Source: Ilumatobacteraceae bacterium (GTDB taxonomy: Bacteria; Actinomycetota; Acidimicrobiia; Acidimicrobiales; Ilumatobacteraceae). Taken from it: a stretch of DNA of 24,000 bases. The first letter of the stretch is position 1. Each line of letters opens with the position of its first letter. Where the stretch lies: NCBI GenBank assembly GCA_963720775.1, contig CAVRGR010000003.1, positions 22,391 through 46,390 of the forward strand. Reading direction: 5' to 3'. The notes under the pieces are model-generated. The model saw nothing but the letters and a program-made list of their open reading frames with translations. It did no database searches and was not told where the DNA came from. Below, in pieces: positions 244-16,435 of this stretch. The translations under genes were made by a program, and so were the position numbers.

Positions 244-1443
244 TCATTCCTGCGCGGCGGCGTTGGTGGCACCTGGCAGCTCGCCGAACGCGGTCAAGAC
301 TGACCTGATCGCCGCGCTGTCGACGCCGGTGATCAGCGGAGTTGCTGCGGAGTTGCCGATGTTCCAGACCCAGAGATCACTGGATCCAGCGCACCCCGTC
401 GAGCGAACCGCCACCACGAGGTGGTTCGAGTCGAGCCAACCGACCGGCTCCGTCGACAACGCAGCGAACACCGACGGTTCATCCGAAACGGCCTCCCCGC
501 TGAAGATCTGCGTGCGGGTGAGACCGGCGCAGTCGCCGACTCGCCAGGCGATCGGCGCGCCGGCGGCAGTACTGACGGTGAGTCTGGCGAGCGGCTCGGC
601 CGTCTCGGCGACGTTCGTAACAGTGAGCGCTGGAAGTGTGACGGCATGGATGTGGAAGGTGCCGTTGTGATGGTCGTCGACGAAGTAGACCAGCGCGCCC
701 GACGGGTCGGGCCCGATCTCGGTGATGGTCGTGTTGGAGTCGGCGTTACGGGCGATCACCCTCGGGTTCTCGCCGCGGTTGCCGGCGACGAAAAGCCCGG
801 CGGTGCCGTCGCTCGCCCGCCCCGCGCCGAAGATGTTGCGGCCGGCCGGGTGGTAGGCGGCAACATCGGTCTGCTCCAGGAAGCTGATGTCCCTGCGGGT
901 CTCGGGTGCACCTGCGGTTCGCCACAACAGATGGTTGTCGGCGACCGCGGGGGCGATCAGCGCCCTGCCCGTCGGGAACGACCAGGAGACGCGGGTGTTG
1001 GTCGCGAAGTACCCGGAGGGCAGCGCCTGTGTTCCGTCGAACACCGTCACCGAGTTGAGCAGCACCCGATCGCCGGCCGGCGACCAACGCAGTGGTCCGA
1101 GGTTGTCGAGCGTCAGTTCCGTCAAGCAGCTCGTGATGCCGTCCGTCGGGTTGATCGTGTACAGGCGCGTTGCGACCTCGAACGTGATCTCAGGCGTCGG
1201 CGGTGCAGCTGAGAACACGCACGCGCCGCCGGGTAGGACGATGGTACTGGTGGGCGCTACGACGACCGATCCTGCCACTGTCGTGACGGTTGTCGGCGGC
1301 ACGGTGTTGCTGGGTGTGCCCAGAGGTGCCAGGGTGTCGGGAGTGGTCGAGCCTGCGTCGATGTTGCACCCCGCCACGAGCATCGTGAGCCCGAGCATCG
1401 ACACGCGGATGCCCAAGCCGTCGAGGTGCCTCATCGCACACAC
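244..1443 (-). CDS. Lipoprotein of unknown function (possible beta-propeller/TolB-like fold)
   Basis: Only the C-terminal ~397 aa of the 592-aa ORF looks protein-like. The N-terminus MRHLDGLGIRVSMLGLTMLVAG|C is a signal peptide plus lipobox. Two start models exist: GTG 1443 with AGGAG (1455..1451) 7 nt upstream, or ATG 1434. Recurrent strand/turn segments (WSPAGDRVLL, AYHPAGRNIF, PDPSGALVYF, WLDSNHLVV) suggest a repeated beta architecture. Confidence 0.75.
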   Translation of the reverse strand: MCAMRHLDGLGIRVSMLGLTMLVAGCNIDAGSTTPDTLAPLGTPSNTVPPTTVTTVAGSVVVAPTSTIVLPGGACVFSAAPPTPEITFEVATRLYTINPTDGITSCLTELTLDNLGPLRWSPAGDRVLLNSVTVFDGTQALPSGYFATNTRVSWSFPTGRALIAPAVADNHLLWRTAGAPETRRDISFLEQTDVAAYHPAGRNIFGAGRASDGTAGLFVAGNRGENPRVIARNADSNTTITEIGPDPSGALVYFVDDHHNGTFHIHAVTLPALTVTNVAETAEPLARLTVSTAAGAPIAWRVGDCAGLTRTQIFSGEAVSDEPSVFAALSTEPVGWLDSNHLVVAVRSTGCAGSSDLWVWNIGNSAATPLITGVDSAAIRSVLTAFGELPGATNAAAQE

Positions 1444-1470
1444 GGTAGATCTCCTGTGAAGGCTCGGTGG

Positions 1471-2187
1471 ATGACCGCGCTCTCGCTGGTCGCGTGCGCC
1501 GTGGTCGCCGCAGGGTGCGCTCAGGGAGATGCCGCGCCGGAGTCCACAGTCGCTCCGCCGACCTCGACCGTGCCCACCTCGACTTCGGCACCAGCCCCAT
1601 CTTCGACCGCACCCGCTACGACGACTTCGACCTCGACCACGCTGCCCAGACCGTTGGTGTACGTCTTCCCGTTCACCGGCAAGAAGGTCAGCTACGGCCG
1701 GCGTCATCACGACTACCCGGCCAGCGACGTCTTCGGATGCGGTGCGACCGTGGTCGCCCCGATTGGCGGGACGATCGACGAGACGCGCTCGTTCGATCCG
1801 TGGGATCCCAAGATCAACGATCCGGCGACACGGGGCGGGAAGTACGTGTCGATGGTGGGCGACGATGGGGTGCGCTACTACTTCGCCCACCTCGCCAGCG
1901 TCGACGTCGCACCTCGGCAGGTCGTCGACGGCGGCACACCGCTCGGGATCATGGGTCAGACCGGCAACGCCAGGAAGTCGGTCTGCCACACTCATTTCGG
2001 TATCTCGTGGCCATGCGAACACTCGGATTGGGCCGTGCGCCGGGGCGAGATCTGGCCGTGGAAGTATCTCGATGCCTGGCGAACGGGCGAGCAGCTCTCA
2101 CCCGTCGACGAGATCGCCGCCGCCGAGGCCGCCAATCCCGACGCATGCAACCTCGCCGGACTGGCTCCGGGTGCTTCCGATGAGTGA
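1471..2187 (+). CDS. Peptidase M23 family metallopeptidase, predicted lipoprotein
   Basis: M23 hallmarks are present: HHDYPASD (His/Asp metal ligands), YYFAHL, GIMGQTGNA and CHTHFG (HxH). The signal peptide MTALSLVACAVVAAG|C carries a lipobox, followed by a Ser/Thr/Pro linker. The start is ambiguous: ATG 1426, GTG 1456, or ATG 1471 with GAAGG 8 nt upstream. Confidence 0.85.
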   Translation: MTALSLVACAVVAAGCAQGDAAPESTVAPPTSTVPTSTSAPAPSSTAPATTTSTSTTLPRPLVYVFPFTGKKVSYGRRHHDYPASDVFGCGATVVAPIGGTIDETRSFDPWDPKINDPATRGGKYVSMVGDDGVRYYFAHLASVDVAPRQVVDGGTPLGIMGQTGNARKSVCHTHFGISWPCEHSDWAVRRGEIWPWKYLDAWRTGEQLSPVDEIAAAEAANPDACNLAGLAPGASDE

Positions 2188-2194
2188 CGAGCAA

Positions 2195-3118
2195 CTAGCT
2201 GGAGATGTGAGAGATGCCGATCCACAGCGCGGCTGGGATCAGGACCCAAGCCATCGCGAGTAGCACGATGGCGTAGACCGCGAAGTTGTACGAATCGTCC
2301 TTCGGCGGTTTGCCACAGGCGCCGATGGTTTCGTAGAGCGCCTTGATCGGTTGCTCGGTCGACAATCTGATCCGTCGGCGAGCGACGCCCGCTGCATACA
2401 ACGATGCCCATGCCAGACCGGCGAACACGATGGCGAACACGGCGGCGAAGACGATCACGCCGACGGTGCCGGTGAACGCCTTCTCCACGAGCCACTTGAG
2501 CCCGGAGCCGACGCTCGACAACAACGCACCACCGAGTAGGAAGGTCGGCAGACCGAGCTGATCGCCTGTGTACCCCTGTTCAACCTGCACGGCGTTGATC
2601 CGTGCCCGGCGCAACATGGCGTGTTCGCGGCTGCCCCACTCGGAGTTGGCTTCTCGACGTTCGTAGAGCCTGCGGATCCGGGTGACGAGACGGTTCTGGT
2701 AGCCCTTGACGATCCATCTGGTCATCTGTTGGACGATGTATCCGGCGATCGGCGTGGCGGGCCCGAGCCGGGGCATGTTCGGCGGCCGCACCCCGTTGCG
2801 GTCCAGCACCTCCAACGATCTCATCGCCAGGCGATGGGCCTCTTCGAACCGATCCGGACGCCACAACGCCCGCACCTTCGAGAGCTCTTTGACGATGTCT
2901 TGTTCCGGCTTGCCGCGTCCCGCGATCTGCTCGAGGATCGCCCCCTTCTCCTCGGCCGTGTCGGCGCGCAACACCCGCAGCGCATCGATGCGGTCGAGCA
3001 GGAGCTCGTCGAGTCGGGTCTCGACCTCGTTCTCTCCTCGACCCGTCTTGGAATGTCTCGCCGGAGCGGGATCGACATCGCCCATCGAGCGCAGGGTAGT
3101 GCCTGTCGCGGATTGCAC
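2195..3118 (-). CDS. Hypothetical membrane protein (N-terminal charged helical domain, C-terminal TM helices)
   Basis: The 307-aa ORF has protein-like composition. About 190 aa are soluble and Arg/Glu/Leu-rich. Three or four hydrophobic helices follow (LPTFLLGGALLSSVGSG, VGVIVFAAVFAIVFAGLAWASLYAA, FAVYAIVLLAMAWVLIPAALWIGI). I recognise no family. The start is GTG 3118 or ATG 3085, and neither has a clear SD. Confidence 0.65.
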   Translation of the reverse strand: MQSATGTTLRSMGDVDPAPARHSKTGRGENEVETRLDELLLDRIDALRVLRADTAEEKGAILEQIAGRGKPEQDIVKELSKVRALWRPDRFEEAHRLAMRSLEVLDRNGVRPPNMPRLGPATPIAGYIVQQMTRWIVKGYQNRLVTRIRRLYERREANSEWGSREHAMLRRARINAVQVEQGYTGDQLGLPTFLLGGALLSSVGSGLKWLVEKAFTGTVGVIVFAAVFAIVFAGLAWASLYAAGVARRRIRLSTEQPIKALYETIGACGKPPKDDSYNFAVYAIVLLAMAWVLIPAALWIGISHISS

Positions 3119-6346: not shown

Positions 6347-6838
6347 CTACGGGGCGAGGGCGCGCAACGGAGCGACGGGTACGTTGCGCAATACGCCGTA
6401 CACCAACAGCAGCGTCGCAGTCGTGATGGCCAGCCATCTCCCCGCTCGCGGTGACACCCGAATCGGTGCCGCGCCCCACGACACTCGCGCCCATCCCACC
6501 CAGACGATCACGATCGCGGCGAGCGCCAACGGCGTGAAGATGTTGTAGCTCAACGCCGCACCGACGTGGCCGTGCAACAGTTGATAGGCACCCCTGGTCA
6601 AGCCGCATCCCGGGCACCACAGCCCGGTGGCCTGATGGAACACACAGCTGGGAAACGGCGACCCGGCTGATGCCGGGTTGTGCGTGGCCACGAACATCGC
6701 GCCTGCCACGAGACCAGAGCCGCAGGCAATCGGTGCCGTCCGCCTGCCCAGATCGCTGCGCAGCGTTGCCGCCAGTCCGAGTTCCATCGGCCCCATCGTA
6801 CGACAGGCAGCGTTGTGGACTCGCCGTTTCCCCGCCAC
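6347..6838 (-). CDS. DUF2752 domain-containing membrane protein
   Basis: It carries the CVFHQATGLWCPGCGLTRG motif (C...CPGCG(L/M)TR) characteristic of DUF2752, plus 3-4 TM helices. The start is uncertain: GTG 6838 lies only 11 nt from the divergent ABC-F start, and in-frame ATGs occur at 6796 and 6787. Confidence 0.75.
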   Translation of the reverse strand: MAGKRRVHNAACRTMGPMELGLAATLRSDLGRRTAPIACGSGLVAGAMFVATHNPASAGSPFPSCVFHQATGLWCPGCGLTRGAYQLLHGHVGAALSYNIFTPLALAAIVIVWVGWARVSWGAAPIRVSPRAGRWLAITTATLLLVYGVLRNVPVAPLRALAP

Positions 6839-6849
6839 GATGGACGGCC

Positions 6850-8466
6850 ATGTTGCAGGTCCAGGCGCTCTCGGTGGAAATTGGTGGTCGTCAGATCATC
6901 GATCGCGCCTCGTTCACCGTTATGCCACGCGACAAAGTCGGCTTGGTGGGCCGCAACGGAGCCGGCAAGACAACGCTGTTCCGAGTACTCGGTGGCGCGT
7001 TGGAGCCGACCGGCGGCAAGATCCTCCGCAAGGGTGGGTTCGGTTACCTGCCGCAAGACCCTCGGATCGCCGGCGTGCTCGATGGGCGTACCGCCATCAC
7101 CCACATCCTGTCCGGGCGTGGGATCGACGAGGAGTTGATCCGGCTGGAGAAACTTCGGTTGACGATGGAGGAAGACTCGAGCGAGCGCAACGTCAGCCGG
7201 TACAGCCGTGCCCACGACGAGTTCGCTACCGCCGGCGGGTATGCGGCCGAGAGCGAGGCGCGATCGATGGCCGCAGGGCTTGGGCTTCCCGACGATCGTC
7301 TGGAGCTGCCCATCGGAGTGCTCAGTGGTGGTGAGCGCCGGCGTGTCGAGTTGTCGCGCATCCTCTTCGCCGGGTCCGACGTGCTGTTGCTCGACGAGCC
7401 CACCAATCACCTCGACATCGACGCGAAGGCGTGGTTGTTGCAGTTCCTGCGCACCTATCGCGGCGCGCTCTTGGTGATCAGCCACGACCTCGATCTGCTC
7501 GACGAGGCCATCACACGGGTCATGCACCTCGATCGACCCGCCGAGGATGCGCTTGGTGTGCTGGTGGAGTACAAGGGGACCTACAGCCAGTACCGGGCGG
7601 CCAGGGCGAGCGACGAGGAGCGGACTGCTCGCAAGGCCGCCTTGCAGGCCAAGGAGATTGCTCGCCTGCAGACCGTCGTCGATCGCTTCGGAGCCAAGGC
7701 CACGAAGGCAGCGATGGCCCACAGCAAAGAGAAGCAGATCGTTCGTCTCGAGGCTCAACGAGTGCACGTCGGCAAGGGTGACCGCACGTTGCGCGTCCGT
7801 TTTCCGGATCCTCCGGCAAGCGGAGCCACGGTCATCACCGCCCAAGGTCTGTCGAAGGCGTACGGCGGACCACCGGTGTTCGAGGATGTGTCGTTCGACG
7901 TCGGCCGCGGCGACCGTCTGCTGGTACTCGGTCTCAACGGTGCCGGCAAGACGAGCCTCCTGCGCATCCTCGCCGGCGAGACCAAGGCCAACGTGGGCCA
8001 GTTCACGTTCGGCCACAACGTCAACGTCGGCTACTACGCGCAGGAGCACGACAACTTGCAGCCCGATGCGTCGCTGCTCGACAACATTCGCGCCGCCGTG
8101 CCCCACGACATCGTGTTGACCGAGACGCAGCTGCGCGGGCTGCTCGGCATGATGGGTCTCAGTGGCGAGAAGGTCTACCAGGAGAGCGGCACGCTGTCGG
8201 GAGGGGAGAAGACGAAGCTTGCGTTGGCGATGTTGATGGTGGGTCGCAACAACCTGCTGCTGCTCGACGAGCCGACCAACAACCTCGACCCGGCCAGCCG
8301 GCAGTCCGTCACCGATTCGCTGTCGGGGTGGAAAGGCACGATCGTGTTCGTCAGCCACGACACCGAGTTCGTCGAGCAACTGCGCCCGACCAAGGTGTTG
8401 CTGATGCCCGATGGCGAGCTCGACTACTTCAGCAACGATTGGTTGGAGCTCGTCTCACTGGCCTGA
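6850..8466 (+). CDS. ABC-F family ATPase (two tandem ABC domains, no TM domain; YbiT/Uup-like)
   Basis: The true start is ATG 6850 (MLQVQALSVEIGG...); the upstream ORF extension is Arg/Pro-rich junk. The first ABC domain has Walker A GRNGAGKTT, signature LSGGERRR and Walker B LLLDEPTNHLD. A charged linker follows (EERTARKAALQAKEIARLQ). The second domain has Walker A GLNGAGKTS, signature LSGGEKTK and Walker B LLLDEPTNNLD. Confidence 0.93.
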   Translation: MLQVQALSVEIGGRQIIDRASFTVMPRDKVGLVGRNGAGKTTLFRVLGGALEPTGGKILRKGGFGYLPQDPRIAGVLDGRTAITHILSGRGIDEELIRLEKLRLTMEEDSSERNVSRYSRAHDEFATAGGYAAESEARSMAAGLGLPDDRLELPIGVLSGGERRRVELSRILFAGSDVLLLDEPTNHLDIDAKAWLLQFLRTYRGALLVISHDLDLLDEAITRVMHLDRPAEDALGVLVEYKGTYSQYRAARASDEERTARKAALQAKEIARLQTVVDRFGAKATKAAMAHSKEKQIVRLEAQRVHVGKGDRTLRVRFPDPPASGATVITAQGLSKAYGGPPVFEDVSFDVGRGDRLLVLGLNGAGKTSLLRILAGETKANVGQFTFGHNVNVGYYAQEHDNLQPDASLLDNIRAAVPHDIVLTETQLRGLLGMMGLSGEKVYQESGTLSGGEKTKLALAMLMVGRNNLLLLDEPTNNLDPASRQSVTDSLSGWKGTIVFVSHDTEFVEQLRPTKVLLMPDGELDYFSNDWLELVSLA

Positions 8467-8489: not shown

Positions 8490-9347
8490 TCAGATGACGC
8501 ACAAGTTGAACTGGCCATGACGGGCGAAGATCGACTCGTAGGCGCGCATCTCGTCGGGCGTGGGTTCCACGAGTTCGCACGTGGTCGGTCGGGCTCCGTG
8601 CTTGCGGAAGCCGATGAGCTTGACGCGGATCGTCGGATCGACCTCGGCCAGCCAGCGGGCCGTGTCGTCGAGCAGCGTCGGATCGTCGTTGATGCCGGGC
8701 AGCAGCAGAAGGCGAACCTCATACAGGCGATCGATGGACTTGAGATAACGAATCGAGTCGAGGACCTGGTCGTTCGGTTGGCCGGTGATGGCGCGGTGGA
8801 TCTCGGGGTCGAGGCACTTGAGATCGATCATCGCACCATCCATCACCAGCAGGAGCGAGGTCCAGGTGCTGCGATCCGCGGCCCCGTTGGAATCGATGAA
8901 GCAGGTCAGGCCGCTGAGCTCGGGGTCCGCTCGAACTGCACCGAACAGCTCGCGCAGGAAATCGGCCTGCTGTGTGGCCTCGCCTCCCGACACGGTGATG
9001 CCTGACAGGAAAGGAGCTGCCCGGCGGATCTCTCCGAGGATGTCTTCCACCGGCCGACGCACGGCCTTCGGAGTCGAGTCCCACTGGCAGGCACCTATGC
9101 ATGCCTCGCTGCCTTTGCAGACGTCGGGGTCCCACGTGATCCCACCCGTCTGGGAGAAGCCGATTGCCTGTGAGGGGCACGCGGCGACGCAATCGCCGCA
9201 GTGGTTGCACAGGTTGATCGTGTACGGGTTGTGGCAGGCGATGCAGTCGAAGTTGCAGCCCTGCAGGAACACCACGAACCGGTTCCCGGGTCCGTCCACG
9301 TTCGAGAACGCGATGGTGTCAGTGACCAGGCCCAGTGTCGCGTTCAT
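8490..9347 (-). CDS. yjjW: YjjW-type glycyl-radical enzyme activating enzyme (radical SAM)
   Basis: The N-terminus is FSNVDGPGNRFVVFLQGCNFDCIACHNP (radical-SAM CxxxCxxC). Two extra Cys clusters follow (CNHCGDCVAACP and CKGSEACIGAC). ITVSGGEAT is also present. The 285-aa protein is collinear along its whole length with E. coli YjjW as I remember it. Confidence 0.88.
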   Translation of the reverse strand: MNATLGLVTDTIAFSNVDGPGNRFVVFLQGCNFDCIACHNPYTINLCNHCGDCVAACPSQAIGFSQTGGITWDPDVCKGSEACIGACQWDSTPKAVRRPVEDILGEIRRAAPFLSGITVSGGEATQQADFLRELFGAVRADPELSGLTCFIDSNGAADRSTWTSLLLVMDGAMIDLKCLDPEIHRAITGQPNDQVLDSIRYLKSIDRLYEVRLLLLPGINDDPTLLDDTARWLAEVDPTIRVKLIGFRKHGARPTTCELVEPTPDEMRAYESIFARHGQFNLCVI

Positions 9348-10866
9348 TGCATCCGATCCGTTTCACGGCTCGTTGAGTGAGGTGGAACGAAGCCTCGGAT
9401 CCGGCAGCGAGGTAGTCGCTGCTGTGCCGGGCGCCGCGTTGTTCGATATCGGTGAGATCGCTCTTGCGGACGAGGTAACCGGTGATGCGGATGAAGTCGT
9501 TCGAGTCGAGGTTGAAGGTGAAGTCACGCATGCCGGTGACGAAGGCGCCGCGAATGATGTCGACGACCGCTTCCGGATTGCGCACAGCGGTGTCGTCCAC
9601 GTGGAAGACGTCACTGATCCCGGCCGTGAACAGGTGGTGGTGGGGCGCACAGGTGTTGATGTGCTCCAACATCGGCGGCTCGTCGCCGACGGGGATTCGT
9701 GTGCCGGCGGTGACGCCGCTGTCGAGGTCGATGCCGCTCTGGGAATGCAGGTAGCAGCGACCGCCACCGCCCTCGCAGTAGGGCATGGGCCGTGCCGCGA
9801 CCAGTTCGGCCACCCGTTCGGTGATGCGGTACGACAACGTGTCGGCGTTCGCATCGTGGCCGTAGCGGCCTGTGCCGCCTTCGTAGGCGATCAGCAGGTT
9901 CACGGCCTCGGCGAGCCCGAACACGCCGAACATCGCCGAGAATCGATCGATCGAGATGAGCCCTTCTTGCGCCAGCCAGCTCGATTCGAAGAAGTGTTGC
10001 TGCTCGACCAACGAGCGAACGCGGGCCTCGGCCAGTTCTGCCGTGAGCTCCACGTACGCCGGCAGTGTCTCGGCGAGAAACGAGTCGGCGTCTCCGGCAT
10101 GGCGCAGCGCCGCCTCCTTCAGGTTGAGCCGGACGAGTGTGTGTGCCCCACCACCGATCTTCAGCGAGTTGTAGCAGCTGACCGCGGCGTACTGGTCGCC
10201 GTGATCTCCGACCATCATCGGATGGTTCACGAAATGCGGCTTGCCGGTCTCGAAGACGGTGCGGACAGCGTCGAGCACCAGATCGTCGGGTGTGAGCCGA
10301 GGGTCGACCTTCAAGGTGAGGTTGGGGACCACCTGGCGAAGTGATCGTTCGACACGAAGGATGGAACGGGCGATCCGGCTGTCACTCGGACCGATGTCGG
10401 TGTGGACGAACGCATCCGGGAGCATTCGATCGAGCGCGATCCAGAACCTGCGCAGCGAAGCATCGAGCTCTTGGTCGCTGACGCCGTCGAACCTGGCGAG
10501 CACCTTGTCGAGATCGCCGAGATAGACGGGATACGTGGTGACGGACGGGACGTGCGCATACATGATCTGCAGGAACGACAGCGCATCGTCGAGGTTGTGC
10601 GGCGCAGGAAGCTCGAGGTGCCGCGATCCTTGGGCGACGGCCCGTTCGTAGTCAGGCAGGACGTACCGAGGGGTGTACGGGGCGTTGCCCTCGTACATGT
10701 CGCAGATGACCCGTTTGTCGAGGGCGTTCTGACAAGCGTCGGAAAGCGTGGGGTAGTCGATCGATTCGGTCGCCAGGGTGGCCAGGCGACGCAGCTTCTG
10801 GTCGTATCCGAGGCTTTCATCACGCACGAGGGCCGTGGCCCGACTGCGCATCTCTTCGAGTTCCAT
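9319..10866 (-). CDS. yjjI: YjjI-family glycyl-radical enzyme (substrate unknown)
   Basis: The protein is 515 aa, versus ~516 aa for E. coli YjjI. The C-proximal motif is DSNDFIRITGYLVRK (the RxxGY glycyl-radical fingerprint; Gly463 codon at 9480..9478). The 3' end overlaps the activase gene by 29 nt. GGAAG lies 7 nt upstream of ATG 10866. Confidence 0.85.
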   Translation of the reverse strand: MELEEMRSRATALVRDESLGYDQKLRRLATLATESIDYPTLSDACQNALDKRVICDMYEGNAPYTPRYVLPDYERAVAQGSRHLELPAPHNLDDALSFLQIMYAHVPSVTTYPVYLGDLDKVLARFDGVSDQELDASLRRFWIALDRMLPDAFVHTDIGPSDSRIARSILRVERSLRQVVPNLTLKVDPRLTPDDLVLDAVRTVFETGKPHFVNHPMMVGDHGDQYAAVSCYNSLKIGGGAHTLVRLNLKEAALRHAGDADSFLAETLPAYVELTAELAEARVRSLVEQQHFFESSWLAQEGLISIDRFSAMFGVFGLAEAVNLLIAYEGGTGRYGHDANADTLSYRITERVAELVAARPMPYCEGGGGRCYLHSQSGIDLDSGVTAGTRIPVGDEPPMLEHINTCAPHHHLFTAGISDVFHVDDTAVRNPEAVVDIIRGAFVTGMRDFTFNLDSNDFIRITGYLVRKSDLTDIEQRGARHSSDYLAAGSEASFHLTQRAVKRIGCNERDTGPGH

Positions 10867-11157
10867 GGCATCACTTCCCTGCTCACACGGGGGCTCTGCG
10901 TTCGACGGTACGCGAGCGCCGTCTCCACCAACAGGGGCGAAAGACCTGGACGAAGTGATGAGCTGGGCCTATCTGGCCAGCCGACGACCAACTGCTGGGG
11001 CCGCATGGGCGCGATCCTGGAAGAGAGAATTCCACTTCCACGCCCAAGCAGGCTCAATGGGTGCTGTCGCGGAAGCAGCACTTCCACGTTCGCGCCCAAG
11101 AACACTGGATCGAAGCCGCACCCGTAGCGGTGCATCCGCGCCGTCCAACGACGCCGA
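10867..11157 (-). promoter_or_regulatory. Structured, repeat-containing upstream/leader region of the yjjI-like gene (promoter, operator and/or cis-regulatory RNA)
   Basis: This is the only long non-coding stretch in the window. A 16-nt direct repeat CACTTCCACG(TTCGCG)CCCAAG occurs at 11079-11100 and 11033-11048. A candidate promoter on the minus strand has -35 TTGAGC (11057..11052), a 17-nt spacer and -10 TGGAAT (11034..11029). A 9-nt pairing, CAUCACUUC (10960..10952) with GAAGUGAUG (10877..10869), covers part of the SD (GGAAG 10878..10874) and the spacer. Several other GC hairpins are present. Confidence 0.35.
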
Positions 11158-11200
11158 CCGGGCGCGCCCCGCGCCGGGCGAACGGTGCCGGTCGCGGCAC
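11158..11200 (-). terminator. Two adjacent GC-rich hairpins immediately after the VOC gene stop (candidate terminator without U-tract)
   Basis: On the minus strand, GTGCCG-cgac-CGGCAC (11200..11185) is a perfect 6-bp stem. CCGGCGC...GCGCCCGG (11178..11158) gives a 7-8 bp GC stem with one bulge. No U-run follows, so terminator function is uncertain. Confidence 0.3.
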
Positions 11201-11622
11201 TAGACGGCGAAGATCTGGGCCTCGTCGACGAACGCCTTGAACTCCAGGGCATTACCGGCCGGGTCGTACAGGAACATCGTCCACTGCTCGCCGGCTTCTC
11301 CGGCGAATCGAACATACGGCTCGATGACGAACGTCACGCGTGCTGAGCGAAGGCGGTCGGCCAGCTCGTGGAACTCGTCGACCGACAAGATCAGCCCGAA
11401 GTGGGGCACGGGCACCTCGTGGCCATCCACAGGATTGTGCGTCAGCGTCGTCGCCGGGGCGAGATGCGTGACGACCTGGTGGCCACGAAGATCCCAGTCG
11501 ACCCACATCTGGTCGCTGCGGCCCTGCGCGCAGCCCAGGACCTCTCCGTAGAACTCGCGGGCAGCGTCGAGATCGTCGACCGGCATCGCCAGGTGGAACC
11601 GCGGCCGCGCCGAGTTGCTCAT
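11200..11622 (-). CDS. VOC (glyoxalase/bleomycin-resistance/dioxygenase) superfamily protein
   Basis: The 140-aa protein starts [23 protein letters not shown] (beta-alpha-beta-beta-beta module start, metal-ligand His). It also has [18 protein letters not shown] and [12 protein letters not shown] (Glu ligand). These are typical of small VOC proteins. Confidence 0.82.
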
Positions 11623-11655: not shown

Positions 11656-13302
11656 TCAGTGCAGGTTGACGGGAGTGCCGGCGAAGGGCTTGTCGACCAT
11701 CTCGAAGAAATCATGACCCTTGTCGTCGACAACGATGAAGGCAGGGAAGTCGCGCACCTCGATCTTCCAGATCGCCTCCATGCCCAGCTCCTCGTACTCG
11801 AGCACGTCGACCTTGGTGATGCAGTCCTGGGCGAGGCGGGCGGCCGGGCCGCCGATCGAGCCGAGATAGAACCCTCCGTAGGTCTTGCAGGCCTCCGTGA
11901 CCTGACGGCTGCGATTGCCCTTGGCGAGCATGACGAAGCTGCCTCCGGCGGCCTGGAACTCGGCGACGTAGCTGTCCATGCGTCCGGCAGTCGTCGGGCC
12001 GAACGAACCGCTGGCCATTCCGGTGGGAGTCTTCGCCGGACCGGCGTAGTACACGCAGAAGTCGCGCATGTACTGCGGCAGACCTCGTCCCTCGTCGAGT
12101 CGTTCTTTCAACTTGGCATGAGCGATGTCGCGGGCAACAACCATCGGGCCCGACAGCATCACGCGGGTCTTGACCGGGTAGCGGCTCAACTCGGCGCGGA
12201 TCTCGTCCATCGGTCGATTGAGATCTATGGCCACCGCTTCACTCTCGAGGTGCTCCTCGGTGACCTCCGGCAAGTAGTGAGCGGGGTCCGACTCGAGGCG
12301 CTCGACGAACACGCCGTCACGGGTGATCTTGCCCAGTGCCTGACGATCGGCGCTGCACGACACGGCGAGTGCCACCGGGCAACTGGCGCCGTGCCGGGGA
12401 AGGCGCACGACGCGCACGTCGTGACAGAAGTACTTGCCGCCGAACTGGGCGCCGATGCCCGTCTGCTGGCTGAGGCTCAGCACCTTGGCTTCGAGCTCGA
12501 TGTCGCGGAAGCCGTGACCCGACGCCGAACCATGCGTCGGCAGGCTGTCGAGGTACTTCGTGCTGGCCAGCTTGGCGGTCTCGACGGCCAGCTCGGCGGA
12601 GGTGCCGCCGATGACGACAGCGAGGTGGTACGGCGGGCAGGCCGCCGTGCCCAAGGTCTTCATCTTCTCGAACAGCCACGGCAGCAACGTCTTCTCGTTG
12701 AGCAACGCCTTCGTCTCTTGGAAGAGGTAGCTCTTGTTGGCGCTGCCGCCGCCTTTGGCGATGAACAGGAACTTGTAGGCGTCGCCGTCGACGGCGGCGA
12801 TCTTGATCTCGGCAGGCAGGTTGTTGCCCGTGTTCTGCTCGTCGTACATCGTCAGCGGCGCCATCTGGCTGTACCGCAGGTTGGAGGTGAGGTAGGTGTT
12901 GTACACCCCCCGCGCGATGGCCGCCTCGTCGGCACCCGTGGTGAGGACGAACTGACCCTTCTTGGCCTTGATGATCGCCGTGCCCGTGTCCTGGCACATC
13001 GGCAGCACGCCCCCAGCGGCGATGTTGGCGTTCTTCAGCAGGTCCAGAGCGACGAATCTGTCGTTGTCACTCGCCTCCGGGTCATCGAGGATGTTGCGCA
13101 ACTGTTGCAGGTGCGCGGGGCGTAACAGATGAGCGATGTCGCGCATCGCTGTCTGCGTGATGAGCGTCAGTGCCTCGGGCTCGACGCGAAGGAAGTCGCC
13201 CGCTGCGGTCTGCACACTCGATACGCCGTCTGTGCTGAGGAGCCGGTACTCGGTGGAGTCGGGGCCGAGTGGAAGCAGCTCGGTGAAGGCGAACTCTGGC
13301 AT
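11656..13302 (-). CDS. fumA: Class I (Fe-S dependent) fumarate hydratase, FumA/FumB family
   Basis: The protein is 548 aa, the same length as E. coli FumA. It is near-collinear with FumA: [119 protein letters not shown] and [10 protein letters not shown]. Confidence 0.96.
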
Positions 13303-13335: not shown

Positions 13336-14691
13336 TCAGGGAGACGGCTGCTTCAAGGCGTTGTCGACCAGGGCCTGCTCCTGTGGCGTCGTCGCCGCGT
13401 GTGGATGGATGGCGCCATCGGCGACCAGCTCGGCCAAGTCGCCGATGCGGACGTCGGGGCTGAACGGGTACAGGGGTGCGATCGATTGGTCGGCGGTCGC
13501 GGCCGCCGGCGAAGCGGCTACCAGTTCCAGCAGAGTCCGCTCGCCGGCGGCGCGAGTTGCCCAGTCGTCGCCGTTCGATCTCAGCGCGCCGATGTTCACG
13601 GCAGTGGCGCCGACCAACACGAGCCGGCCGGCCCACTGAGCGGGAGGGGCGATGCCGGCCAGAAGATCGACTGCAATGCCGAACGCAGGCATCATGAGCA
13701 CAGCGCCGATGTACACGTACCGCGAGGTCGCTGCTGTCTCCATACCGAACCCGCCGCGTTGGATCGCAAGCCCGACGTACATGGCAACGGCGGTGACGGC
13801 GAGGGAAGCGATGAGATCGTGAGCGCTCGCGTCGCGTCGTCTCCACAGCAGCACTGCCAGCGTCGCGACCAGCGAGATGCCCACCAGCGAGCTGTTCAAG
13901 GTCATTCCCTGGAACACTGCCTCGAAACCACGATTGACGAACGCCGGCAACTCCGACCACGTCCCTCGGTTGGCATCGCCGGCCGGGTCCTGCCCCCAGA
14001 ACAACCACCACCACGCGGTGGCCAGCGCGGTTGGGACGGTCGCGATGGCCGCCGCCTTCCAGCGACGACGCATCACCATGAACAACAACGTGCCGAGGAT
14101 GAAGAACGGTCCGAAACCTGACGACGCCACGGCAACGAGTCCGGCCACGACGCCGAAGGCGTCGCGGCGATCCGGCGGGCCATCGTGGTCGATCAGGCTG
14201 AGCTGGACGAGGAACGCCAACACCGACAGGTTGTAGGTCAGCTGCACGGCGAACACGATGTTCTCCCACCCGCTGCCGAACACGGCGAGCATGGCGGCGA
14301 GGATCGTGGCCGTCCAGGCGGTGACACCGGCACGCAGGCAGATCTTGCGCACCATCACCGCAATTCCGAGATGGCACGCCATCGCAGGGATGAGGTACGG
14401 CCAGTACGAGCCGGTGCCGAACAGTGCGTGTATCAAACGCCAGATCAGGATGGGGAAGGTCATCCAATGCCCGTCCTGGGCCATGAACAGCATGTCGTCG
14501 AGCCCGCGGACCTGATGGATCTTCTCGCGGGTGAACGTGAACGCCCAGTCGTCGCGGATGAACCACTGATGACGCCCGACGAGGTAGAGAACCACCATGG
14601 CAACGCACAGAGCGGCGCGGAAGCCCCAACGCGCGCCATCGTCGGAACGTGCCCAGGCCGCGGCGTGGCGCGCTCGGGCCTCAACGTCCAC
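13336..14691 (-). CDS. Polytopic membrane protein, putative GT-C-type (polyprenyl-phosphate-sugar dependent) glycosyltransferase
   Basis: The protein is 451 aa with ~11 hydrophobic helices. An Asp-Asp pair sits directly after TM1 (LYLVGRHQWFIRDDWAF), as in the first extracytoplasmic loop of GT-C enzymes. It ends in a ~90-aa soluble tail. The GTG start at 14691 overlaps the GT2 stop by 11 nt. The fold and function assignment is an inference. Confidence 0.6.
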   Translation of the reverse strand: MDVEARARHAAAWARSDDGARWGFRAALCVAMVVLYLVGRHQWFIRDDWAFTFTREKIHQVRGLDDMLFMAQDGHWMTFPILIWRLIHALFGTGSYWPYLIPAMACHLGIAVMVRKICLRAGVTAWTATILAAMLAVFGSGWENIVFAVQLTYNLSVLAFLVQLSLIDHDGPPDRRDAFGVVAGLVAVASSGFGPFFILGTLLFMVMRRRWKAAAIATVPTALATAWWWLFWGQDPAGDANRGTWSELPAFVNRGFEAVFQGMTLNSSLVGISLVATLAVLLWRRRDASAHDLIASLAVTAVAMYVGLAIQRGGFGMETAATSRYVYIGAVLMMPAFGIAVDLLAGIAPPAQWAGRLVLVGATAVNIGALRSNGDDWATRAAGERTLLELVAASPAAATADQSIAPLYPFSPDVRIGDLAELVADGAIHPHAATTPQEQALVDNALKQPSP

Positions 14692-15391
14692 GGATCACCA
14701 TGTGCCACCACAGGAGCAGCAGCTGCCAGGCGCTGCGTGCGATCGCCGGCAGGCGGAAGAACTGTGACTTGCCCGACGGGCGGAAGTAGTGATGCACCGG
14801 GAACTCGACGAAGCGAGCTCCGGCGCGATCGAACGAACGCATCATCTCCACGCAGATCACCCCCGAGGTTGATGTCAGCGGACGGTCGATGACCAGCTGC
14901 CGGCGGAACATGCGGAAGTCGCAATCGGTGTCGCGGACCTTGAGGTTGAAGAGCAGTTTGACGACATGGTGGTAGATCCGCCCGATCACCTTGCGGTACC
15001 ACGGATCGCCGCGACCGATCTTGTATCCCTGGACGAAGTCGACCTTGTCGGTGGCCAACGGGACGAGAAGCGCCGCCTCGCCGGCGTCGTACTGAGCGTC
15101 GCCATCCGTGTAGAAGATCCAGTCGTTCGTTGCGGCGGCGAAACCGCTGAGCAACGCCTTCCCGTATCCGCCGTTGGTCTCGTGATGGATCGCCCGCAAC
15201 CACGGCCGCTTCTCGACCAATGCGTCGAGCGTGGCTCGCGAGTCGTCGGCGGACCCGTCATTGACGACGATCACCTCGACGTCAGGGACCAGTGGCGACA
15301 ACGCCGCGAAGACGTCGTCGACCAGACCTCCGATGGTCTCTGCGTCGTTGTAGCAGGGAAAGACCGCCGACACGCTCTGCACACCCGTCAT
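14681..15391 (-). CDS. GT2-family glycosyltransferase, polyprenyl-phosphate sugar synthase-like (DPM1/ArnC/GtrB-like)
   Basis: This is the C-terminal 236 aa of the 584-aa read-through ORF. Motifs are VSAVFPCYNDAETIG, VIVVNDGSADDS, NGGYGKAL and FYTDGDAQYD (DxD). ATG 15391 forms an ATGA overlap with the aminotransferase stop (15390..15388). Confidence 0.88.
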   Translation of the reverse strand: MTGVQSVSAVFPCYNDAETIGGLVDDVFAALSPLVPDVEVIVVNDGSADDSRATLDALVEKRPWLRAIHHETNGGYGKALLSGFAAATNDWIFYTDGDAQYDAGEAALLVPLATDKVDFVQGYKIGRGDPWYRKVIGRIYHHVVKLLFNLKVRDTDCDFRMFRRQLVIDRPLTSTSGVICVEMMRSFDRAGARFVEFPVHHYFRPSGKSQFFRLPAIARSAWQLLLLWWHMVIRGR

Positions 15392-16435
15392 CTGCCGAGT
15401 GCTGCCAACGCCGCACACACCTGGCTGATCTCGGCCTCGGTCATCTCCGGAAAGCACGGGACGCTGATGCACTCCGCCGCCCACGCCTCGGCAGCAGGGC
15501 ATTGGGCATGCTCGAGGTCGCGGTACGCGGGCTGTTGGGTGATCGCCAACGGATAGTGCACAGCACTGGCCACGCCGGCGGCCTCGAGCGCGGCGCGCGC
15601 CTGGTTGCGGTCTGCGCTGCGAAACACAGCGAGATGGTAGGCATGGTCGGGGTGCGGAGACTGCCAACGAAGTTGAGGCGCAGCGTGCCGGTAGCGATCG
15701 ACGATCCGGTGACGCCGTTCGACGTCGGCGGCGAGGTCGGGCAGGGCCAACCGTAGCCAAGCCGCTTCGAGCTCCGACATCCTGAAGTTCTGGGAGACGT
15801 GCTCGTGCACGTACTGGGTGGTCATCCCGTGCACGCGACGGGTGCGGACCAGGTCGGCGAGCGCGGCGTTGTTGGTGACGACTGCGCCCCCGTCGCCGAT
15901 GCCGCCGAGGTTCTTCGTCGGGTAGAAGCTGTACACCGTGGCGGCCGATCGCGCTCGGGTCGCGAAGCGCGCCGTGGGCCTGCGCAGCGTCTTCGATCAC
16001 GAGGAGATCGGTTGCCGGCAGGTCGGCCGGATAGCCATAGAGGTGGACGACGATGACCGCTTTGCTGCGCGGCGTGCGGCCGCGGTCGATGTTCGTCGTG
16101 GTGAGACACGCTGTGGATCGATCGACGTCGATGGCGCGCGGGATCGCTCCGAGGGCAGCGACTGCCGACGCGGTGGGTACAGCGGTGAACGCTGGTATCA
16201 GGACCTCGTCACCGGGCCCGATGCCGGCGGCGGCGAGTGCGAGCTGCAGAGCTGCAGCGCCCGACGAAACGCCGACGCAGTGCTGCGCTCCCAGCCATCG
16301 AGCGAATTCGGTTTCGAACGCGGACAGTTCAGCCCCCAGGAGGAAGCTGCCGCTCGACGCAATTCGTTCCGTCGCAACTGCGAACGCCGAGGCAAACCGC
16401 TGCCCGCGCCGACTCAGGTCGACGACAGGTACCAC
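15388..16435 (-). pseudogene. DegT/DnrJ/EryC1/StrS-family PLP-dependent sugar aminotransferase, interrupted by an apparent 1-nt frameshift
   Basis: The N-terminal half runs from GTG 16435 in one frame: ...FETEFARWLG, GVSSGAAALQLAL, VLIPAFTAVPTA, VIEDAAQAHGA. The C-terminal half is in the +1 frame (15936..15388): VYSFYPTKNLGGIGDGGAVVTN (PLP lysine), VHG, NFRMSELEAA, HLAVF, VHYP. The frames switch between 15968 and 15936. Removing one C from GGCCGCC would give ...SAIGATVYSFYPTK. Confidence 0.85.

Follow-up and report, generated by a model that had tools for sequence, protein, structure and literature searches.

A stretch of 24,000 nucleotides (nt) from an Ilumatobacteraceae bacterium (GenBank assembly GCA_963720775.1, contig CAVRGR010000003.1, positions 22,391 to 46,390; hereafter the window, meaning this whole stretch at its full length) carries on its minus strand two overlapping genes, yjjI and yjjW. 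They encode a 515-amino-acid (aa) glycyl-radical enzyme and a 285-aa activase of the radical S-adenosylmethionine (SAM) type, and they are preceded by a conserved promoter resembling those of the DosR/DevR regulon. The pair is a new member of the known, uncharacterised YjjI/YjjW family, and the clues added here do not reveal the reaction it catalyses. The genes, their predicted catalytic sites and the promoter elements are listed below in window positions, with the kind of evidence in brackets.

8490..9347, minus strand: yjjW-like gene, 285 aa, radical-SAM activase (TIGR04041, PF04055, match to E. coli).
9087..9209, minus strand: ferredoxin-like insert of YjjW, CX2CX2CX3C plus CX5CX3C, seven cysteines (motif, Fer4 Pfam matches).
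9234..9257, minus strand: CNFDCIAC, the CX3CX2C motif for the SAM-cleaving [4Fe-4S] cluster (motif, conservation).
9319..9347, minus strand: 29-nt overlap of the yjjI 3' end and the yjjW 5' end, with probable translational coupling (open reading frame positions).
9319..10866, minus strand: yjjI-like gene, 515 aa, glycyl-radical enzyme of the YjjI family (open reading frame, PF11230, TIGR04040, match to E. coli).
9478..9480, minus strand: codon of Gly463 in RITGY, the predicted glycyl-radical site (conservation, model).
10174..10176, minus strand: codon of Cys231 in the S-C-Y-N loop, the predicted thiyl-radical site (conservation, model, alignment with NrdD).
10867..10962, minus strand: conserved promoter-proximal part of the 333-nt intergenic region (similarity in related loci).
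10871..10880, minus strand: Shine-Dalgarno-like AGGGAAGTGA in a predicted leader of ~32-38 nt (sequence).
10905..10910, minus strand: -10-like hexamer TACCGT (TANNNT), 22 nt past the box (alignment, spacing).
10933..10947, minus strand: DosR/DevR-type box AGGTCTTTCGCCCCT (published consensus, orthologous boxes).

The 515-aa protein belongs to the YjjI family over its entire length. It matches the Pfam YjjI-like family PF11230 (formerly DUF3029) with E = 3.5e-190 and 632.9 bits across model positions 1-484 of 485, and the NCBIfam model TIGR04040 with 659.7 bits across positions 3-497 of 497, well above the curated whole-protein cut-off of 498.3 bits. Its alignment with E. coli K-12 YjjI (b4380) is full-length and collinear, with 49% identity over 491 aligned residues. 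The C-proximal glycyl-radical fingerprint of the family, R-[IV]-[TS]-G-[YF], is present as RITG463Y (residues 460-464, with the Gly463 codon read 9480..9478; RVTGY in E. coli YjjI), and the sole cysteine in an AAVSCYNS context is Cys231 (codon read 10176..10174), within the S-C-Y-N loop that is shared with E. coli (VSCYNS). Among 148 full-length homologues Gly463 is kept in 141 and Cys231 in 147; Gly463 is also invariant in the two diverse alignments (sets A1 and A2), and no cysteine other than Cys231 is invariant across the homologue alignments. Further near-invariant residues are E59, R67, Y68, D120, D146, H155, N182, N233, R246, E301, H374, Q376, D382, R390 and R460. In live E. coli cells the equivalent of Gly463, Gly465 of YjjI, has been labelled by a radical-trapping probe. 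At the C-terminus, the tail of residues 479-515 (window 9319..9381, minus strand) is predicted to be disordered and its last codons overlap the yjjW start; R499 within this tail is invariant in 19 diverse homologues.

The 285-aa protein is identified as YjjW by TIGR04041 (321.7 bits against a cut-off of 250.2 bits), and it stays under the cut-offs of all other activase equivalogs. It contains the Pfam radical SAM domain PF04055, is collinear with E. coli YjjW (b4379) at 41% identity over 275 residues, and matches the PFL-activating enzyme 3c8f with E = 1.9e-21. The cysteines of CNFDCIAC are C31, C35 and C38, all three of which are invariant in a comparison set of 64 related YjjW sequences. Two additional groups, C47/50/53/57 and C77/83/87, bring seven auxiliary cysteines; E. 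coli YjjW has an eight-cysteine, two-cluster insert, and its eighth auxiliary cysteine is replaced in the window clade by Ser80. The ferredoxin-like insert is present in only 19 of the 64 related activases and absent from the other 45, so that most related activases in the Acidimicrobiia do without it, and in practice it is not a defining feature of YjjW as judged from these sequences. In Helicovermis and Bibersteinia, yjjI is likewise accompanied by activases without Fer4 matches. Together, these two observations imply that the auxiliary clusters are probably dispensable for the activation of YjjI.

The two open reading frames are intact, with a coding-type third-position GC content (GC3) of 0.80-0.83. 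The gene order is that of E. coli K-12, in which yjjI and yjjW likewise overlap by 29 nt, and candidate yjjW starts in most related loci give overlaps of 29, 20, 14 or 4 nt. Because such overlaps recur in E. coli and in the related loci, translational coupling of yjjI and yjjW looks like a probable trait of the family. The original prediction, made from the sequence alone, had described both reading frames, the RITGY motif with its glycine codon, the 29-nt overlap, and an activase with CNFDCIAC plus two extra cysteine clusters, and all of these were found at the positions it gave. Its assignment of the proteins to YjjI and YjjW, and its claim of full-length collinearity with the E. coli proteins, are borne out by the profile searches and alignments above, and the glycine and candidate cysteine that it singled out are those that prove invariant.

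The region upstream of yjjI points to expression at low oxygen. An independent and long regulatory region had been predicted for the pair; the 333-nt intergenic region does hold its own promoter, but only the ~96 promoter-proximal nt are conserved. These 96 nt (10867..10962) are the sole intergenic stretch with similarity in related loci (85% in locus L001, 72% in L003 and 76% in L007), and the distal ~237 nt (10963..11199) have no similarity there. In L003 and L005 the stop codon of the upstream gene, which encodes a VOC protein, lies within ~0-25 nt of the box; by comparison, the window carries extra DNA here. Alignment of 75 yjjI upstream regions from related loci yields a box with the consensus GGGACCTTCGGCCCT, followed by the -10-like TACCGT. 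The box occurs in 62 of the 75 regions, and the spacer between box and TANNNT measures 22 nt in 26 of these and 23 nt in another 13. Of the 26 regions with the shorter spacer, 17 have their start codon 6-7 nt past TANNNT, which predicts leaderless mRNAs and a box centred near -41. For the window clade, a leader of about 32-38 nt is predicted instead, in which AGGGAAGTGA would serve as the ribosome-binding site. The hexamer TANNNT is the SigA -10 element in Mycobacterium smegmatis (PMC6448022).

The published DosR consensus is mycobacterial (stringent GGGACTTNNGNCCCT, weak RRGNCYWNNGNMM; PMC6448022), and the host here belongs to the Acidimicrobiia. The window box AGGTCTTTCGCCCCT has two mismatches to the stringent form, matches the weak form fully, and is the only site in the window within two mismatches of GGGACTTNNGNCCCT. 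Sites with at most two mismatches to the stringent consensus occur in 35 of the 75 upstream regions, compared with 0.5% of segments drawn at random from those loci; with at most three mismatches, the figures are 62 of 75 and 5%. A scan of metagenomes with the pattern GGACCTTCGGCCCT-N18-22-TANNNT recovered 122 instances, 102 of them with the exact 22-nt spacer and 4-7 for every other spacing. No open reading frame downstream of these metagenomic instances is yjjI. Those that follow the arrangement include genes for aldehyde dehydrogenases, CBS, BON and USP proteins, flavodoxins, HSP20, a 4Fe-4S (ferredoxin-type) protein, a formate/nitrite transporter and a PPDK-like protein, several of which are classic gene types of the DosR regulon. 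The same architecture is widespread (window 10905..10947, L001-L080, L083-L202) and often drives leaderless genes. Additionally, three genes in two related loci (L056 5346..7871 and 1262..2200, and L016 3196..6786, all on the minus strand) are preceded by extra DosR-like boxes scoring 16-20 bits; the three encode a pyruvate:ferredoxin oxidoreductase (PFOR; this gene is divergent from yjjI), a tandem USP and a large molybdopterin oxidoreductase. These boxes suggest an anaerobic regulon around yjjI. The DosR-regulon literature that was searched does not mention YjjI as a member, and the conserved DosR-type promoter upstream of yjjI is reported here for the first time; it suggests that expression is induced by hypoxia.

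Several other features of the intergenic region were noted. A perfect 9-nt inverted repeat, GAAGTGATG / CATCACTTC, has its arms at 10952..10960 and 10869..10877, that is, just upstream of the DosR-like box and in the yjjI ribosome-binding region; the upstream arm lies outside the predicted transcript and is partly kept in L001 and L003. Apart from this repeat, the repeat search of the 333 nt returned only short two-copy matches. Consensus scans for a sigma-70 promoter and an intrinsic terminator gave no match. A riboswitch or other known RNA in the leader was considered and rejected, as a search of the whole window against Rfam gave no match and the leader folds no better than shuffled sequences (z = -1.5).

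The identity of the regulator is the point at which an alternative fares best. The box could be bound by a factor other than DosR/DevR (e.g., another regulator of the NarL/LuxR type or an unrelated dimeric factor), in which case the signal need not be oxygen. The single box, with no tandem second copy, is unlike all M. tuberculosis DevR promoters, which carry at least two tandem boxes, the proximal one lying 33-34 nt from the transcription start (PMC3177182); in addition, the box has a C at its position 6, against a T in the stringent consensus. Against such a factor, the positions critical for DevR binding (G4, G5, C7 and W9) are kept in both half-sites of the palindromic GGGnC-N4-GnCCC core, the weak consensus is matched fully and the stringent one nearly, and the box, if taken as 18 bp long, would end some 33 nt from the predicted start, a distance in keeping with proximal Dev boxes. 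The TANNNT element and the kinds of genes found behind the same architecture (USP, CBS, HSP20, ferredoxin-type and transporter genes) are also those of mycobacterial Dev box promoters. A different regulator is thus a serious candidate but an unlikely one, and a DosR/DevR-type activator remains the preferred reading.

Evidence for low-oxygen expression of the family is also available from enterobacteria. E. coli yjjI, which has an FNR site in place of the DosR-type box, is among the operons directly activated by FNR (PMC3688515), anaerobic Yersinia intermedia shows a 4.3-fold increase of yjjI and a 2.1-fold increase of yjjW (PMC3792023), and an earlier computational study placed yjjI and narG in one group, with FNR- and NarL-like motifs (PMC3228777). 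The anaerobic or microaerobic capability proposed for the pair from the oxygen sensitivity of glycyl radicals is therefore plausible on the strength of the DosR-type promoter and the enterobacterial FNR data, and the operon is most likely switched on at low oxygen.

The structure of YjjI was predicted with AlphaFold2 from an alignment of 26 diverse sequences, giving a mean predicted local distance difference test (pLDDT) of 87.6 and a predicted template modelling score (pTM) of 0.87, with disorder confined to the tail. DSSP assigns to the model ten barrel-type strands and two beta-hairpins, the tips of which are residues 230-232 (S-C-Y) and 461-464 (I-T-G-Y). Cys231 sits between strands 226-229 and 233-236 and Gly463 between strands 458-460 and 465-467, so that the model places the two residues at the tips of the two hairpins. 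Sequence searches found no solved structure of a YjjI family member at E <= 1. In a Foldseek search of the PDB with the model, class III ribonucleotide reductases rank first (8p2s, 9dau, 1h78, 4coj), with E values down to 6e-17, a template modelling (TM) score of about 0.7 (0.71) and 12-15% identity; PflD, the glycerol and propanediol dehydratases and PFL rank below them (E = 1e-14 to 1e-11). In common with PflB, PflD and these dehydratases, YjjI has the superfamily fold as predicted by the model, the RxxG[YF] fingerprint and a PflA-like activase, but it is about 250-300 residues shorter than PFL-type enzymes and its active-site motif is Cys-Tyr-Asn as opposed to Cys-Cys (PFL) or Cys-x-Glu (dehydratases). 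The PFL-like Pfam family PF02901 is unmatched by the window protein, and relatives have a weak or faint precomputed match to it.

The resemblance to NrdD raises the possibility that YjjI is a non-canonical, class III-like anaerobic ribonucleotide reductase that supplies deoxynucleotides in hypoxia, comparable to the role proposed for the class II reductase NrdZ (Rv0570) in the DosR regulon of M. tuberculosis. The published table of DevR promoters lists Rv0570 in the Rv0569 operon (PMC3177182), and the promoter of yjjI is of the DosR type. The top structural matches are NrdD proteins, Pfam NRDD (PF13597) matches the window protein weakly (33.2 bits), and when the profile is aligned to that of E. 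coli NrdD (probability 94.7%) Cys231 falls on the thiyl-radical Cys384. The C-terminal glycine loop and a radical-SAM activating partner encoded downstream (NrdG in the case of NrdD) are further points of likeness. In the same alignment, however, NrdD Cys175, which is needed for reduction, lies in a gap beside the invariant R67-Y68, and this second active-site cysteine (C175 in E. coli, C79 in T4) has no equivalent in YjjI. The C-terminal Cys4 zinc ribbon is also missing, since after residue 400 the window protein has just C406 and C506, and there is no Pfam match to an ATP cone. The protein is about 200 residues shorter than E. coli NrdD, its identity to NrdD structures is no more than 12-15%, it matches no NCBIfam NrdD model or indeed any NCBIfam model besides TIGR04040, and it falls in a separate curated family. 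E. coli, moreover, has a separate nrdDG besides yjjIW. On this evidence a ribonucleotide reductase function is very unlikely. The modelled scaffold is closest to class III ribonucleotide reductase but is without the features needed for reduction, and the single catalytic cysteine, together with a set of invariant polar residues particular to YjjI, indicates a reaction distinct from ribonucleotide reduction.

The genes surrounding the pair give no lead on its substrate. Two genes lie upstream in the same direction.

11200..11622, minus strand: VOC/glyoxalase protein, 140 aa, upstream of yjjI (open reading frame, domain search).
11656..13302, minus strand: class I fumarase, upstream of the VOC gene (Fumerase and Fumerase_C domains).

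FumA is the top NCBIfam match of the fumarase, which nevertheless falls under the equivalog cut-off. Downstream, a convergent ABC-F ATPase gene has its stop 23 nt from the yjjW stop. The conservation of this arrangement was surveyed among relatives found by scanning one genome per species, which gave 384 stretches encoding a relative; the locus counts cover the best 80 of the 384 (L001-L080), all of which are metagenome-assembled genomes (MAGs). All window genes were searched against these 80 loci with tblastn, and 1,427 flanking open reading frames were clustered de novo. YjjW adjoins yjjI in 78 of the 80 loci. The VOC gene is found near yjjI in 2, FumA in 5 and ABC-F in 11, in every case among the nearest relatives. 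The only recurrent flanking genes from the clustering encode helicases, DtxR-, TetR- and UvrD-like proteins, a multicopper oxidase and MraY, and no metabolic partner gene is recurrent around yjjI among the 80 loci. The pair likewise stands alone amid unrelated genes in Clostridium estertheticum, Helicovermis profundi and Bibersteinia trehalosi, and in E. coli it is located between yjjV and the divergent deoCABD operon, unlike the fumA, VOC and ABC-F context of the window. The yjjIW pair is a stand-alone two-gene module in four phyla.

The position of the pair co-directionally downstream of a class I fumarase and a VOC gene, as had been described, is correct, but the suggestion that these neighbours hint at the substrate did not survive the survey. 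In this proposal the four genes would act in one pathway with a C4-dicarboxylate or a related compound as substrate, and FumA, VOC, yjjI and yjjW do stand in a row, with FumA upstream in the nearest relatives as well. Their occurrence in 2 (VOC) and 5 (FumA) of 80 loci, among the closest relatives only, indicates synteny by descent; L001 has FumA without VOC, yjjI has its own conserved promoter, and the pair is set among unrelated genes in Clostridium, Helicovermis, Bibersteinia and E. coli. The neighbourhood survey largely refutes a shared pathway, which we regard as highly improbable.

Protein identity across the best 80 loci is 71-93%. The nearest (L001, 93%) is an Ilumatobacteraceae MAG, and the other labels comprise Ilumatobacteraceae, other Acidimicrobiia, unclassified Actinomycetota, Nocardioidaceae, Micrococcales and Ca. 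Phosphoribacter, with two Bifidobacterium. Close homologues from Ilumatobacteraceae MAGs are already called 'YjjI family glycine radical enzyme' in the protein database, and the family is compact: of 1.84 billion representatives clustered at 50% identity, no more than 490 reach E <= 0.001, and many of these are fragments. The literature search gave no link between Ilumatobacter and glycyl-radical enzymes. The original prediction had set the pair against a genome that otherwise looked like that of an aerobic high-GC actinobacterium; the genome is from the Ilumatobacteraceae, and with 384 relatives the pair is no oddity but common and strongly conserved in the Ilumatobacteraceae/Acidimicrobiia lineage, of which it is typical.

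Taken as a whole, the data are best explained by a YjjI/YjjW operon with a canonical radical relay and low-oxygen expression from a DosR-type promoter, a reading to which we assign a probability of roughly 85%. Several points weigh against it. The box in the window is by itself not significant (1 match, compared with 1.78 expected by chance in 24 kb); what gives it weight is its conservation among the loci. No tandem second box was found ahead of the primary one, the median score there (-8.6) being that of background. The literature searched assigns no reaction or substrate to any YjjI family member, as the original prediction had stated. Finally, the Ilumatobacter species in culture have been described as aerobes, and a strictly anoxic enzyme would call for some explanation in such bacteria, transient hypoxia being one. 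Given that description, the pair might be seen as an inactive relic in an aerobic lineage, but with both reading frames intact at a GC3 of 0.80-0.83, 71-93% protein identity across the best 80 loci, and catalytic residues and promoter conserved, we give this almost no credence.

For the preferred radical relay, the steps can be inferred from established glycyl-radical-enzyme chemistry. Under low oxygen, a putative DosR/DevR-type activator would bind the box, the centre of which lies about 41 bp ahead of the predicted start of transcription, and induce the operon, and the 29-nt overlap would couple translation of yjjW to that of yjjI. In YjjW, the [4Fe-4S] cluster on C31, C35 and C38 would then reductively cleave SAM, and the resulting 5'-deoxyadenosyl radical would abstract a hydrogen from Gly463 of YjjI. 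The stored Gly463 radical would oxidise Cys231, which is expected on the finger loop opposite, and the thiyl radical so formed would abstract a hydrogen atom from the substrate. No transporter or pathway partner is conserved with the pair in four phyla, and the most likely substrate is therefore a metabolite that is ubiquitous inside cells as opposed to an exotic nutrient, an inference drawn from gene content.

Two other observations concern the remainder of the window. The open reading frame of the ABC-F ATPase (6670..8466, plus strand) is probably too long at its 5' end, where it overlaps an opposite-strand DUF2752 gene (6347..6838, minus strand); family models align from about residue 60, which would place the start near 6850. 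Further along, a 584-aa open reading frame (14681..16435, minus strand) joins the N-terminal half of a DegT-type aminotransferase to a family-2 glycosyltransferase domain, and contains within it another open reading frame on the same strand in a different frame (15388..15936, minus strand) with coding-type GC3. This arrangement may represent a frameshift, a fusion or an assembly error.

YjjI/YjjW is among the last glycyl-radical families without an assigned reaction, although it is encoded even in E. coli K-12, and the usable clues to that reaction are now an NrdD-like scaffold minus the features for reduction, a context-free module and a DosR-type promoter. Speculatively, YjjI could be the core of a new class of glycyl-radical reaction, in which an NrdD-derived scaffold that has shed the second cysteine and the zinc ribbon acts on a ubiquitous nucleotide- or sugar-phosphate-like metabolite as part of low-oxygen housekeeping, under DosR in Actinomycetota and FNR in enterobacteria. 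We consider this doubtful in its full extent; if it were true, conservation of the pair in 'aerobic' Acidimicrobiia would mark a hidden programme for anoxic survival. The DosR-type promoter in Acidimicrobiia parallels FNR control in enterobacteria, and would thus tie the family to low oxygen in two unrelated regulatory systems. For the Ilumatobacteraceae, a group abundant in waters, soils and sludge that passes for aerobic, the conserved pair and its promoter suggest that these bacteria may carry an anoxia-adapted enzyme set.

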